Below, piece by piece: positions 12,274 through 19,027 of a stretch of 64,000 nucleotides of DNA (position 1 is the first letter of the stretch; the number at the start of each line of letters is the position of its first letter). The position numbers and the translations under genes are program-made. The notes beneath the pieces are model-generated. The model saw only the letters and a list, made by a program, of their open reading frames with translations. It was not told the DNA's origin and ran no database searches. This DNA is from Dehalococcoidia bacterium (GTDB taxonomy: Bacteria; Chloroflexota; Dehalococcoidia; Bin125): assembly GCA_965237475.1 (NCBI GenBank), contig OZ250140.1:483549-547548 (forward strand). The letters are read 5' to 3'.

Positions 12274-15200
12274 TTACGCGGCCCATGCTTCCGAAAGCAG
12301 CTCGGCCTGCTCCAGGACTGTGATCGTCGCCTGCTCCTGTTGGTCGGGCGGGTAGCCGTGCTTGCGCAGGATCCGCTTCACGAGCACGCGGAGCTGTGCC
12401 CGCACGTTCTCCCTGAGCGTCCAATCGATCGTCACATTGCGGCGAACCGTCTCGACCAGCTCGCGCGCGATCTCGCGGAGCGCCTCATCGCCCAGCACCT
12501 GGACCGCGCTGTCATTGGTCTCCAGCGCGTCGTAGAAGGCGAGTTCGTCGTCCGAGAGGCCCAAACTCTCCCCGCGGGCGTTCGCTGCGCGCATCTCTTG
12601 CGCGAGTTGTATCAGTTCTTCGATCACCTGCGCCGCCTCGATCGCACGATTCTGATAGCGGCGCAGCGACTGCTCCAACATCTCCGAGAACTTGCGCGCC
12701 TGCACGACGTTGCTGCGCCGAGTCGTGGACAGCTCGCCCTTGAGCAGCTTCTGCAAGAGCTCAACCGCGAGGTTGCGGTGCGGCATGCCGCGGACCTCGG
12801 CGAGGAACTCGTCGGAGAGCACCGAGACATCCGGCTGCTCCAGCCCGGCTGCCGCGAAGATGTCGAGCACGCCCTCGGGCGCGACCGCGCGGGCGATGAT
12901 CTGGCGCACCGCGTGGTCCAACTCCTCGTCGGCGCGCGCCTCGCCAGGCGCTCGCTTTGCCAACGCCGAGCGGACAGCCTGGAAGAACGCCACATCGTCG
13001 CGGATCCGGAGCGTCTGCTCGTGCGGCACGGCCAGGGCGAACGCCTGCGACAGCTCACGTACGGCGCCGATGCAGCGCTCCTTGCCGTGCTCTTGACCAA
13101 GAATGTGGTCCTGAGCTGCGGGTAGCAATCCGAGGCGTTCCTGCGCTGAGCCGGTCGCCCACTTCGAGCGGTCGAAGCCGTGGAACAGCCCGGCGCAGAT
13201 CTCGTACTTCTCGATCATCAGCGCGACGGCCTCACCCTGGTCGATCGCCGTCTTGCCGGTGCCGCCGCTCTCGGTATAGACCGCGAGCGCCCGCTTCAGG
13301 TCGTGCGCGAGCCCGAGGTAGTCGACGACCAGACCGCCGGGCTTATCCTTGAAGACCCGGTTCACGCGCGCGATGGCCTGCATCAGACCGTGCCCGCGCA
13401 TCGGCTTGTCGACATACATCGTGTGCAGGCTCGGCGCGTCGAAGCCGGTCAGCCACATGTCGCGCACCAGTACGACGCGCATCGAATCGTCAGGCTCGCG
13501 GAAGCGGTTCGCCAGCGCCTCGCGGCGCGGCTTGTTGCGGATGTGCGGCTGCCAGTCCAGCGAATCCGACGCCGAGCCGGTCATCACGACCTTGATCGCT
13601 CCGCGCTCATCATCGTCGTCGTGCCAGTCCGGCCGCAGCCGCACCAGCTCCCGATACAGGTCCACGCAGATGCGCCGGCTCATGCAGACGATCATCGCCT
13701 TGCCCTCGATCGCCTCGAGGCGCGCCGCGTAGTGCGCAACGATGTCCTGCGCGACGAGCTTGATTCGCTGCTCGGCGCCGACGATCGCCTCGAGCTGCGC
13801 CCACTTGGTCTTCAGCTGCTCCTTGCGCTCGACCTCTTCGCCCTCGGTCACTTCCTCGAAGTCCAGATCAAGCGTGAGCGCTTCGTCTGCATCCAGCGCC
13901 AGCTGCGCCAGGCGGCTTTCGTAGTAGATCGGGACCGTCGCGCCATCGCGGACCGAGCGCTGGATGTCGTACACGCTGATGTAATCGCCGAAGACGGCCC
14001 GCGTGTTCGCGTCTTTGAGCTCGATCGGCGTGCCGGTGAAGCCGACGAACGAGGCGTGCGGCAGCGCGTCGCGCATGTGCCTGGCGAAGCCGTCGATGAA
14101 GTCGTACTGACTGCGATGCGCCTCGTCGGCGATGACCACGATGTTGCGCCGGTTGGAGAGCGTCGGATGCCGGTCGCCGGTCGCTTCGGGGAAGAACTTC
14201 TGAATCGTGGTGAACACCACGCCGCCCGCGTTGACCGAGAGCCTGCTGCGCAGGTCGGCCCGGCTCTCGGCCTGTGCCGGCGGCTGTCGCAGCAGGTCCT
14301 GGCAGCGCGAGAACGTGCCGAAGAGCTGGTCGTCGAGGTCGTTGCGGTCGGTCAGCACGACGATGGTTGGGTTCTCCATCGCGGGCTCGCGGATGATCGC
14401 GCCGGCGTAGAAGGCCATCGTGAGGCTCTTGCCCGAGCCCTGGGTGTGCCAGACGACGCCGATGCGGCGGTCGCCGGGCTCGCCGCCCGGTCGGCGCCCC
14501 GACTCGTAGCGGCCGTGCTCGTCTTCGCCGACGCGCCGTGCAGTCGCCTTCGGTTCGACGGCGCGCAGCGTCTCCTCGACGGCGACGCGCACGGCGTGGA
14601 ACTGGTGGTAGCCGCCCATCTTCTTGGCCGGCTCGCCGCCGCCGTCGTCATCGAAGACGACGAAGTCGCGGATCAGCCTGAGGAAGCGCGCAGGCGCGCA
14701 GGCGCCCTCCAGCATTACCTGCAGCTCGGGCATGTGCGGGTCGGCGGGGGCGTCGCCGTGAATCGTGCGCCACGGCTTGAACCACTCCTTGCCCGCCGTC
14801 AGCGTGCCGATCCGAGCGTCCAGACCGTCAGACACCATCAGCATCTCGTTCATCGAGAACAACGTCGGCAGCTCCGACTTGTACGTCTGCAGCTGCTGCC
14901 AGGCGTCCCAGATGATGGCGTCCTCGTCGGCCGGGTTCTTCAGCTCGATGACCCCCAGGGGCAGGCCGTTCACGAACAGCACAATGTCAGGCCGGCGCGT
15001 GTGCTTGTTCTCGGTCACGGTGAACTGGTTGACCGCGAGCCAGTCGTTGGCCGCGGGCTCGTCGAAGTCGACGACCCGTGCCTGCGCCCCGCGGATGGCG
15101 CCCTCGCCGGTGCGGTATTCGACCGTGACGCCCCAGACGAGCATGCGGTGGAACGCGCGGTTGCGCGCCGCGAGGGTCGAGCCTTCGGGTCGGGTCAGCT

Positions 15201-15360
15201 TGCGGAACGCGCCGTCGAGGGCGTCATCGGGGAGGTCGGGTTTGAGTTCGGCGATGGCGTCGCGCAGGCGCTGATCGAGGATGACATGTGAGTAGTCGCG
15301 CTCAATGTCGGGGCCGTGGGCGGTCTGCCAGCCAGTATCCATCAGCCAGCCGAGCGCCAT
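12274..15360 (-). CDS. hsdR: type I restriction enzyme R subunit
   Basis: 1028 aa. HsdR N-terminal nuclease region plus SF2 helicase motifs and a long C-terminal region. Confidence 0.9.
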
Positions 15361-15389
15361 GTCCTCGAGTGAGGCTTCATCGAGGAGGT

Positions 15390-16782: not shown

Positions 16783-17409
16783 TCAGGCGGCCGATCCGTT
16801 CGCTTGTGCTGGTTGCTCGACCATCGTCCTTAGGTCGCTGATCATCCATTCGAGCATCTCGAGATTGCGAAGTGTGGTCGTCTCGTTGCCCACGCTCCGT
16901 CGAATCGTCAATAAGAACTCGCTGAAGGTCGTGACAAATTCCATTCCATTCTCTAGAGTGGGCTGGCTGGAGTCGATCGCCGAAGAGGTCGCATTCTCCA
17001 TCGCGTAGGCGAACTGCATCAAGTTGTTGAACGCACGGATGACTTCGTCGCTCGCAAACAGCGATAGCTTGAACGCAGCCTGACGATACTCGATCGACTG
17101 CATCACTTCGGCGCCACTCTTCGCCTTGCGACCCTTCCGCCGATTCGGTTCGCCGGAGTCACCCAAGCCCTCGCTGAATATGGCGATAAACGGCGCGAGA
17201 ATGTTGTTGTAGACGTCGACACGCTCGTCCCTGATCTCCTCTTCGAGCTTCTGTGCCCTCTGGCGAGCCGCAGCTTCCTTCGCCTGAGCCGATTCGATCC
17301 GTCGTTGGAACACCCACAGTATGCCGGAAGCGAGGACGATCAGAATCGGCGTGACAATCGATCCGATCGCGGTGATGATCTCGAGGGTGGTCGGCGCGCC
17401 GGGATCCAT
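16783..17409 (-). CDS. hypothetical single-pass membrane protein with a coiled-coil; lower GC than surroundings
   Basis: TM helix LEIITAIGSIVTPILIVLASGILWVF followed by a charged coiled-coil region (QAKEAAARQRAQKLEEEIRDERVD). The local sequence is AT-richer than its neighbours. Confidence 0.5.
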   Translation of the reverse strand: MDPGAPTTLEIITAIGSIVTPILIVLASGILWVFQRRIESAQAKEAAARQRAQKLEEEIRDERVDVYNNILAPFIAIFSEGLGDSGEPNRRKGRKAKSGAEVMQSIEYRQAAFKLSLFASDEVIRAFNNLMQFAYAMENATSSAIDSSQPTLENGMEFVTTFSEFLLTIRRSVGNETTTLRNLEMLEWMISDLRTMVEQPAQANGSAA

Positions 17410-17557
17410 CAGGTCGCTCCCTCCCCGATTCTTGTGCCGAATGTGGCGGCCGATCCGAGTCCAATCGAAATGAGTCGGGGCAAGAGTGTGTCCCAAGTGG
17501 TGTCATGTGCGCCCGATGGACGGCACGGATGCAGAGCCTGTGAGTGCGGTCGCGGGA

Positions 17558-19027
17558 TCACGAGATCTGCCTGAGGTAGGACACCGCCGAGGCGGTTACG
17601 CCCAGCGCTTTCGTAAGGTGAAGCCGCCGCACGTGGCCGTGCTGTTCGACCTCCTCCAGACTTGCGCTCTTGCAGAAGCCGGGGATATCGGCGTACTCGG
17701 CGGAGGCGTCGTGGCTGCGCCAGGCGTGGTACGTCTCGGTGATCCGCCCGATGTCCTCGCTGGTCAGCTCGCGGTGGGTGCGGTCGATCATCCGGCCCAG
17801 CTTGCGAGCGTCGATGAACAGAACCTCGTCGCGCCGGTCGCGGAACTTGCCGTTGCGGCGGTTGCGCGCGAGGAACCACAGGCAGACGGGAATCTGTGTT
17901 GAGTAGAAGAGCTGGCCCGGCAGCGCGACCATGCAGTCGACCAGGTCGGCTTCGAGCAGATTCTGGCGTATCTCACCCTCGCCTGACTGATTGGACGACA
18001 TCGACCCGTTGGCGAGCACGAAGCCGGCGACGCCGCGCGGCGAAAGGTGGCTGGCCATGTGCTGGACCCAGGCGAAGTTGGCGTTGCGCGCGGGCGGGAC
18101 GCCCCAGAGCCAGCGCTTGTCGTCGCGCAGGCGTTCGCCGCCCCAGACGGAGACGTTGAAGGGCGGATTGGCAAGGATGTAGTCGGCCTTGAGGTCGGGG
18201 TGGCGGTCGTTGTGGAAGCTGTCGCCGTGGGCGATCTGGGCGTCAATGCCGCGAATCGCCAGGTTCATCTTGGCCAGTCGCCAGGTGGTGTAGTTGGACT
18301 CCTGGCCGTAGATGGAGATGTCGGCCTTGGCCTTGCCGCCATTCCCGTTGCCGTTGGCATGGGCGCGGATGAACTCGATCGACTGAACGAACATCCCGGC
18401 TGAGCCGCAGCAGGGGTCGTAGACGCGGCCGTCGTAGGGCTCGAGCATCTCGACGAGCAGCTGGACGACGCTGCGCGCGGTGTAGAACTCGCCGCCCTTC
18501 TTGCCTTCGGCGCTGGCGAACTGGGAGAGGAAATACTCGTAGACGCGGCCCAGCACATCGGTCGAGCGGGCTTGTTCGCTGCCCACCTCGATGTTCGTGA
18601 TCAGGTCGATCAGCTGGCCGAGCCGCTGCTTGTCGAGCGATTCACGCGCGTACTCCTTCGGCAGGACATCGTGGAGCGCCGGGTTGTGGCGCTCGATGCC
18701 GGTCATCGCGGTGTCGACGACCTGCCCAATCGTGGACTGGCGCGCCTGCGTCTGGAGCGTCCGCCAGCGCGCCTCGGGCGGGACCCAGAAGCTGTTCTTC
18801 GCGCGGTATTCGTCGGCGTCCTCTGGGTCGGCGCCCTCGCTGCGCTCAGACTCGAGCTGCGCGCGGAGTTCCTCGAACGCGTCCGAGATGTACTTGAGAA
18901 AGATCAGGCCGAGCACCACATGCTTGTATTCGGCCGCGTCCATGCTGCCGCGCAGCGCGTTGGCCATCTCCCAGAGCTTCTGCTCATAGCCCGCTGTGGC
19001 GCTGTCGGCGTCGGCGTGTGGGGACAC
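17558..19027 (-). CDS. hsdM: type I restriction-modification methyltransferase M subunit
   Basis: 489 aa. N6-adenine MTase motif '[13 protein letters not shown]'. HsdM N-terminal domain. Confidence 0.9.

Follow-up and report, generated by a model that had tools for sequence, protein, structure and literature searches.

A type I restriction-modification locus of a Dehalococcoidia bacterium that is probably degenerating while still carrying embedded candidate defence genes

The locus described here is a type I restriction-modification (RM) operon in a 64-kb stretch of DNA from a Dehalococcoidia bacterium (contig OZ250140.1, positions 483,549 to 547,548; this whole stretch, whose GC content is 0.654, is referred to below as the window). 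Five open reading frames (ORFs), all on the minus strand and in the same orientation, run from the hsdM side at position 19027 down to the hsdR side at 12274; an ORF check confirmed these coordinates, which had been given in an initial annotation made from the sequence. The methylation-subunit gene hsdM (17558-19027) is followed by a 148-bp spacer (17410..17557) and then by a gene (16783..17409) for a single-pass membrane protein of 208 amino acids (aa), part of it a charged coiled-coil-like stretch, whose helical C-terminal domain is conserved. Next come two genes that both Pfam and PADLOC recognise, one encoding the 161-aa PDC-M24A (DUF6978; 16166..16651) and the other the 259-aa PDC-M24B (DUF1828; 15390..16169), and finally the restriction-subunit gene hsdR (12274..15360), which encodes 1028 aa. 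A gap of 131 bp separates the membrane-protein gene from M24A, the M24A stop codon and the M24B start codon share an ATGA at 16166-16169, as the initial annotation had noticed, and hsdR starts 29 nt past the end of M24B. On the other side of hsdM, the distance to a neighbouring epimerase gene, put earlier at about 120 bp, measures 121 bp. A scan of the locus for promoters and terminators was uninformative.

HsdM was recognised by Pfam (HsdM_N and N6_Mtase) and by PADLOC (MTase_I, E = 2e-194), and its gene had been taken to be intact. This proved not to be so. Compared with 30 relatives, the window HsdM is 72-79% identical over residues 1-466 only (of 489), and when it was used as a tblastn query against all of these relatives the alignments always ended at residue 466. 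Codons 1-466 (17630..19027) specify the N-terminal domain and the N6-adenine methyltransferase catalytic domain. In all 30 relatives HsdM runs 53-90 aa beyond this point, through a conserved tail of the form LTPGRYVG..DDGEPFE.KM..L..QW..QQ.EA..LD..I..NL..LGF (in one of the 30, L065, the tail is itself frameshifted after 43 aa). Past residue 466 the window protein consists of 23 unrelated residues followed by a stop codon (17558..17629). Consistent with this, a DNA alignment with five relatives lost similarity after ...CACGGCCACGTGC, at nt ~17629, placing the breakpoint at about nt 17629/17628. No remnant of the tail was found in any frame of the window: the tails of the relatives gave only noise as queries, a three-frame translation of 17400-17650 showed nothing tail-like, and the spacer at 17410..17557 has no likeness to HsdM tails, to HsdS or to the Trypsin_2 proteases described below. 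Because no tail is present in the other frames and the DNA itself diverges at ~17629, the end of hsdM is a breakpoint, and a frameshift in place of a truncation is ruled out.

The segment that is missing from hsdM is the one through which HsdM engages the specificity subunit, HsdS. In the closest solved HsdM (3khk) the sequence FVLTPGRYVGAE stands at the position that matches the window breakpoint, and the M1 subunit of PacII extends at the same position into its C-terminal tail. HsdM of EcoKI reportedly depends on its tail in the same way as the PacII subunits do. In PacII the tail forms a four-helix bundle with the conserved regions of HsdS, and deletion of the C-terminal tails of M1 and M2 abolishes assembly of the M1M2S heterotrimer (PMC9613975). 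The window HsdM therefore has its N-terminal and catalytic domains and is without its HsdS-binding tail. Since the tail binds HsdS, and HsdS recognises the DNA, the local RM enzyme would not be expected to assemble. Within residues 1-466, four substitutions fall at positions that are invariant in 21 relatives, a count within the range of the other sequences. The changes P184A (FYTP to FYTA) and D294V (NPPFNxxD to NPPFNVSV), both at such invariant positions, are located in or beside the S-adenosylmethionine-binding and catalytic motifs and may be a first hint that constraint on the shortened gene is relaxing.

No hsdS was found anywhere in the window. We built a hidden Markov model (HMM) from 28 same-family HsdS proteins, with typical target recognition domain (TRD) and central conserved-region sequence, that occur among 80 related loci; these 80 are loci from reference genomes that carry M24 genes, and around each of them RM genes of the same family were sought within 10 kb. 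The best match of this HMM to a six-frame translation of the whole window had E = 3, which is noise, and tblastn with each of the same-family HsdS proteins returned nothing from the window. The Pfam family Methylase_S was absent from all three genes between hsdM and hsdR, and also from ten further window ORFs, among them every one of the seven that are about as large as an HsdS (399-455 aa). These ten encode CoA-transferases, a solute-binding protein and the like, or lack annotation. These searches rule out a hidden or divergent hsdS in the window. The three intervening proteins themselves, one of which might on the initial annotation's own terms have turned out to be a divergent HsdS, have no sequence match to HsdS and, in structure models, no two-TRD architecture, which rules them out as specificity subunits. 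The earlier statement that no specificity subunit is recognisable thus extends to the entire 64 kb.

The 80 reference loci indicate what the operon would be expected to contain. Full-length hsdM and hsdR of this family are both present in 27 of them, with hsdS between the two in every case (27/27), making the window the sole locus with hsdM and hsdR and without hsdS (1 of 28). The M24 pair is also present in 25 of these 27 complete loci, either directly before hsdR or directly after hsdM. In relatives with hsdS alone between hsdM and M24A (L007 and L018), the distance from HsdM residue 466 to the M24A start is at least 1.4 kb; in the window it amounts to 0.98 kb, taken up by the 208-aa gene together with spacers. 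The shorter distance and the different filling indicate that at least the hsdM tail and hsdS have been lost or replaced. It had been proposed that the module between hsdM and hsdR has replaced hsdS, or stands in for it. Because the pair occurs together with hsdS in relatives, it is not a substitute for hsdS, and the coincidence of hsdS loss with truncation of hsdM likewise speaks against such a replacement.

RM genes in various states of decay accompany the M24 genes elsewhere. C-terminal fragments of HsdR lie beside M24B (and M24A where detected) in L019, L039, L079 and L081, and fragments of HsdM do so in L044 and L052; RM fragments beside intact M24 genes in several genomes show that decay of the host RM operon around M24 is recurrent. 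At 40 of the 80 loci there was no same-family hsdM, hsdS or hsdR within 10 kb, and in the RM-less loci that we sampled the neighbours were mostly metabolic genes. Neither an orthologous empty site nor shared flanks were found among the 80 loci.

The restriction subunit shows no comparable damage, and here the initial description of the gene as intact was accurate. HsdR matches TIGR00348 (E = 6e-172) as well as the Pfam families HSDR_N, SWI2_SNF2, ResIII, T1R_D3-like and T1RH-like_C, and aligns at full length to its relatives, with 72-80% identity over residues 1-1028. It keeps the nuclease motif (D...ELK) and the DEAH helicase motif in addition to the T1RH-like_C region, and by profile match the PD-(D/E)xK nuclease, motor and C-terminal assembly domains are all present. 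Nor was there a signal of relaxed selection on hsdR, in which 7 of 385 invariant sites are changed, a number within the range of the relatives. In comparison with classical type I systems (EcoKI, EcoR124I and PacII, of composition HsdM2-HsdS1-HsdR2), the window is alike in its HsdM N-terminal and catalytic domains, in its operon-like order and in a full HsdR, which is of the HindI/T1RH-like_C type; it differs in lacking HsdS together with the (V/L)TPGRYVG strand and the C-terminal tail of HsdM.

The two genes next to hsdR correspond to a system that has already been catalogued. M24A matches PADLOC PDLC04533 (E = 2.4e-49; residues 1-154 against 1-143 of the 151 profile positions) and M24B matches PDLC04540 (E = 2.2e-76; residues 13-264 against 4-254 of 256), and the two are adjacent and on the same strand, as the PADLOC definition of PDC-M24 has it. 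PDC-M24 is a prediction: it stems from a "guilt-by-embedding" screen of BREX and DISARM loci as well as those of type I RM, and the PDC systems are 145 "phage defence candidates" predicted from such embedding (bioRxiv 10.1101/2024.01.29.577857). With both proteins matched over nearly their full length, and with the genes adjacent, co-oriented, overlapping and situated between hsdM and hsdR, the window pair itself is no different from PDC-M24; what sets the window apart is a host RM operon without hsdS and without the hsdM tail, and a 10-aa insertion containing cysteines in its M24A. The suggestion of a novel RM-associated system accordingly does not stand, while the broader expectation that type I loci host embedded anti-phage modules gains support, as the second and third of the intervening genes, the latter described earlier as a DUF1828/1829-like protein of about 260 aa, are a PADLOC candidate pair.

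In 71 of the 80 loci M24A immediately precedes M24B; the two overlap by 4 nt in 65, and in 61 the overlap is exactly ATGA. The M24B family comprises more than 1000 clusters at 90% identity. PHROG matches of weak to moderate strength exist for both proteins, and the pair occurs on one IMG/VR contig. Literature matches for DUF1828, DUF6978 and DUF1829 were unrelated or concerned another DUF1829 protein; one DUF1829 protein that has been validated (DS-6B/HipAD) is part of another system.

Structure models nevertheless allow some statements about what the pair might do. The M24B model combines an N-terminal domain resembling YbjN and secretion chaperones with an alpha/beta C-terminal domain of restriction-endonuclease-like (PD-(D/E)xK) fold, in which D169 on core strand 2 and R194, E197 and D205 in the following helix are conserved, D169 and E197 being nearly invariant. 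The Cfr10I/NgoMIV/BstEII group of PD-(D/E)xK enzymes and the CARF-nuclease Can2 are about 10% identical to it, with no profile match to solved structures, and differ from the M24B family in that, in the latter, no lysine is conserved anywhere and strand 3 lacks a (D/E)xK. M24B is thus best described as a protein of nuclease fold whose nuclease activity is putative, possibly through a permuted or lysine-less site. The M24A model is a beta-meander with no structural match. Profile searches of M24A and M24B against the sequences in the PDB returned only noise. The initial annotation had drawn attention to a Cys/His cluster in the 161-aa protein and had suggested a metal-binding nuclease. The cluster is there, and its cysteine part (RKRGRRVACDCPHG) is largely the 10-aa insertion, a low-confidence loop found in this copy only; what is conserved in the family is the motif HHNP...HKHRWT, in which H83 and H105 are invariant and H107 is nearly so. 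As the cysteines are not conserved and no structural match to HNH or any other nuclease was detected, M24A as a Zn/HNH nuclease is ruled out, and the nuclease-like fold resides in M24B.

Short forms of M24B (136-142 aa), consisting of the N-terminal DUF1828 domain without the nuclease-like domain, also occur. A tandem M24A-short M24B-M24A-short M24B array is present in L086 (515-3958) and in L087, with the second M24A start of the L086 array overlapping the first short M24B by 4 nt, and L082 (10720-11618) carries two short M24B genes without M24A.

The membrane-protein gene may have a different history. In its product a single hydrophobic segment (residues ~9-34) precedes a charged helical stretch and a C-terminal domain that is conserved, and the GC content of the gene is 0.576, as compared with 0.654 for the window, all in keeping with the earlier description of a lower-GC gene for a single-TM coiled-coil protein. 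GC content at third codon positions (GC3) is 0.74 for this gene, 0.74-0.78 across the membrane-protein, M24A and M24B genes, and 0.90 for hsdM and hsdR. Searches of Pfam, PADLOC, NCBIfam and PHROGs gave no match for the 208-aa protein. It nonetheless belongs to a family of which a word search found 15 clusters and a full HMM search 555 cluster representatives, the listed members being small, almost all of 80-260 aa. The membrane-protein gene is cargo that was probably acquired horizontally.

Among its closest relatives, which are 42-53% identical and all stem from a single metagenome project, the membrane-protein gene directly follows a gene for a ~280-aa Trypsin_2 protease (L082/L083, L084 and L086/L087). 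This protease matches PADLOC PDC-S45, with E = 6e-20 in L082 and 3e-27 in L084. The order is MNT, HepT, HsdS, Trypsin_2, membrane protein and two short M24B genes in L082/L083; Trypsin_2, membrane protein, M24A, short M24B, M24A and short M24B in L086/L087 (preceded in L087 by a weak HsdS-like end, E = 0.001); and MNT, Trypsin_2 and membrane protein, without M24 genes, in L084. Wherever it occurs, the cassette of protease and membrane protein has a GC3 below that of its host (0.57-0.76 against 0.86-0.92). In L085 and L088 the family members follow a methyltransferase-HNH fusion. Neither a Trypsin_2 gene nor a remnant of one was detected in the window by tblastn with three Trypsin_2 proteins. 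The membrane-protein gene of the window may therefore be the cargo of a second cassette whose partner was lost in the same event that truncated hsdM. PDC-S45 is catalogued as a single-gene trypsin-like protease, and its definition does not include the membrane partner; judging from gene order, it may sometimes be a two-gene system in these lineages. The pairs concerned lie at 9131-10642 in L082, 9125-10786 in L084 and 515-2057 in L086, and both genes have a GC3 far below that of the host genes.

Taken together, these results make it probable that we are dealing with a type I RM operon in the course of degeneration, with defence cargo still embedded in it, and not with a new system. The ancestral order would have been hsdM, hsdS, variable cargo, PDC-M24A, PDC-M24B and hsdR, or one with the M24 pair directly after hsdM. 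A deletion or recombinational replacement with one end at hsdM codon 466 (nt ~17629) would have removed the C-terminal tail of HsdM and all of hsdS, at least ~1.4 kb, and probably also the trypsin-like protease gene that preceded the membrane-protein gene. This event probably disabled the RM system: this locus, with HsdM(1-466) and HsdR, would not be expected to give rise to a functional methylase or restriction enzyme. The M24A-M24B pair, intact and by its overlap translationally coupled, is a candidate autonomous two-gene defence module that would have no need of the RM genes. In such a module M24B would most likely be the effector, its chaperone- or sensor-like N-terminal domain controlling the restriction-endonuclease-fold C-terminal domain, and M24A would be a stoichiometric partner, a regulator or a sensor. 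The membrane protein would be separate cargo, derived from the cassette of protease and membrane protein and now probably co-transcribed behind the truncated hsdM.

Several observations weigh against this interpretation or parts of it. The mapping of the rearrangement covers one of its ends. No remnant of a protease gene or of hsdS is present in the 220 bp that lie upstream of the membrane-protein gene, so that the earlier presence of a protease is inferred from relatives with 42-51% identity. The more distant members of the membrane-protein family have quite other neighbours, among them methyltransferase-HNH, HNH/Mrr_N, RepA, DUF4062 and DUF4238 proteins and a phage portal gene. In the M24B family no lysine is conserved among 30 sequences, and strand 3 reads (V/I)FLLST, without the (D/E)xK expected of the fold. 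No paper naming PDC-M24, no experiment on it and no functional work on DUF1828 or DUF6978 were found in the searchable literature. The source of the window is a metagenome contig, and a misassembly at the junction is conceivable. Finally, hsdR is of full length and shows no excess of change, which would mean either that the loss was recent or that hsdR is still used, and it is possible that hsdR acts with a second hsdM and hsdS elsewhere in the ~3-Mb genome.

The last of these points leads to the idea that the RM system functions in trans, with a second locus of the same family supplying HsdS and a full HsdM, this locus supplying HsdR, and the hsdM fragment being a relic. The full-length hsdR, with its nuclease and DEAH motifs intact and no excess change at invariant positions, fits this idea, as does the open frame kept by the catalytic region of hsdM. 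A recent deletion predicts an intact hsdR equally well, however, neither an hsdS nor a second hsdM lies within the 64 kb, and the local HsdM lacks the tail needed for assembly with HsdS, which speaks against the use of a distant hsdS by this HsdM, one of the options that had been raised initially. We regard function in trans as unlikely.

It is also conceivable that the membrane protein, M24A and M24B, ancestrally together with the protease, form one functional unit, a combination of a PDC-S45-like system with PDC-M24. In the window, L082/L083 and L086/L087 alike, the membrane-protein gene is immediately upstream of genes of the M24 families, so that the trio singled out earlier is weakly a unit, and the GC3 of all three window genes is below that of the RM backbone. 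The contigs that support this arrangement all come from one metagenome project, however, and may represent related lineages; none of the 80 reference M24 loci has the membrane-protein gene, L084 carries the protease and membrane protein without M24 genes, the distant family members keep the unrelated company listed above, and the membrane-protein gene is separated by its 131-bp gap from an M24A that overlaps M24B. A single unit is therefore distinctly unlikely. More specific, and improbable, is the proposal that the membrane protein (ancestrally with the protease) and M24A/M24B make up one defence cassette and that hsdR has been kept to serve it; if true, this would be a system of protease, membrane protein and nuclease-fold protein that outlives its host type I RM operon or re-uses parts of it.

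An assembly artefact would mean a chimeric join or a collapsed variant at the 17629 junction, with hsdM-hsdS intact in the real genome. It would suit the metagenomic origin of the contig and a breakpoint that falls inside a gene family with many paralogues and relatives in such communities. Records of all three cargo proteins exist for two contigs, one of 373 kb and one of 3.0 Mb (which may share underlying data), strand and spacing are coherent across the junction, the reading frame continues for 23 codons beyond it, and no repeat that would promote collapse is found there, all of which makes an artefact very improbable. An S-independent system, in which HsdR and the clipped HsdM have been recruited by M24A/M24B or by the membrane protein in place of HsdS, could call on the intact hsdR and on M24B ending 29-40 nt before hsdR in the window and about a dozen relatives, and is extremely improbable given that hsdS is kept in every one of the 27 related loci in which hsdM and hsdR are both full, that 40 of 80 M24 loci lack RM genes of this family, that TRD and Methylase_S features are absent from all three proteins, and that such an architecture is seen at this one locus only.

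On the reading that we favour, a decaying RM operon with embedded cargo, the missing hsdS reflects gene decay and the coupled pair is one already catalogued, so that the locus carries little weight as a discovery. It would illustrate cleanly, from nature, how embedded cargo can survive the RM operon that hosted it, and several related genomes show like decay. The PrrC/EcoprrI system, in which an anticodon nuclease is embedded in a type I RM operon that holds PrrC in check, is alike in placing a non-RM defence gene between the hsdM/hsdS side and hsdR. PrrC is almost exclusively embedded in type I RM operons, unlike M24, which lacks same-family RM genes nearby at 40 of the 80 loci, and there is no sequence or fold similarity between PrrC and the window cargo. 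The models furthermore provide a first structural reading of PDC-M24, with M24B having a nuclease-like fold without the canonical lysine and M24A a fold without a match, and offer concrete residues to mutate. Flagged here as well is an unannotated family of membrane proteins, whose members closest to the window protein are encoded behind a PDC-S45-like protease.

RM operons of the same family elsewhere carry varied cargo between hsdS and the M24 pair, including a TIR-domain protein, SIR2_2 proteins (7 loci), Fic proteins and HEPN/MNT pairs; examples are L002 (7615-9473), L026 (7779-9527), L078 (8063-9187) and the clusters c8/c6, found in about 8 loci. In L063 (10937-17209) the M24 pair adjoins a DUF1156 methyltransferase-like protein and a DUF499 + Swt1-like HEPN protein, a different defence-type context for the pair.

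A check for mobile elements revealed no meaningful direct or inverted repeats around the hsdM junction or the cargo. Some 1.5 kb past the hsdR end of the locus, at 9770-10818 on the minus strand, a small AF2212-like ORF has directly downstream of it an ORF with a PIN domain (Pfam PIN, E = 7e-5), and the two resemble a VapBC-type toxin-antitoxin pair. Three successive leucine-rich-repeat (LRR) ORFs of 185, 66 and 260 aa, on the plus strand at 10562-12075, look like either a single LRR gene that frameshifts have interrupted or several small LRR genes in a cluster; an LRR protein is also encoded downstream of the M24B and hsdR-fragment locus in L079. The window further contains two giant ORFs, one of 2450 aa (24331-31683, plus strand) and the other of 2399 aa (52069-59268, minus strand).

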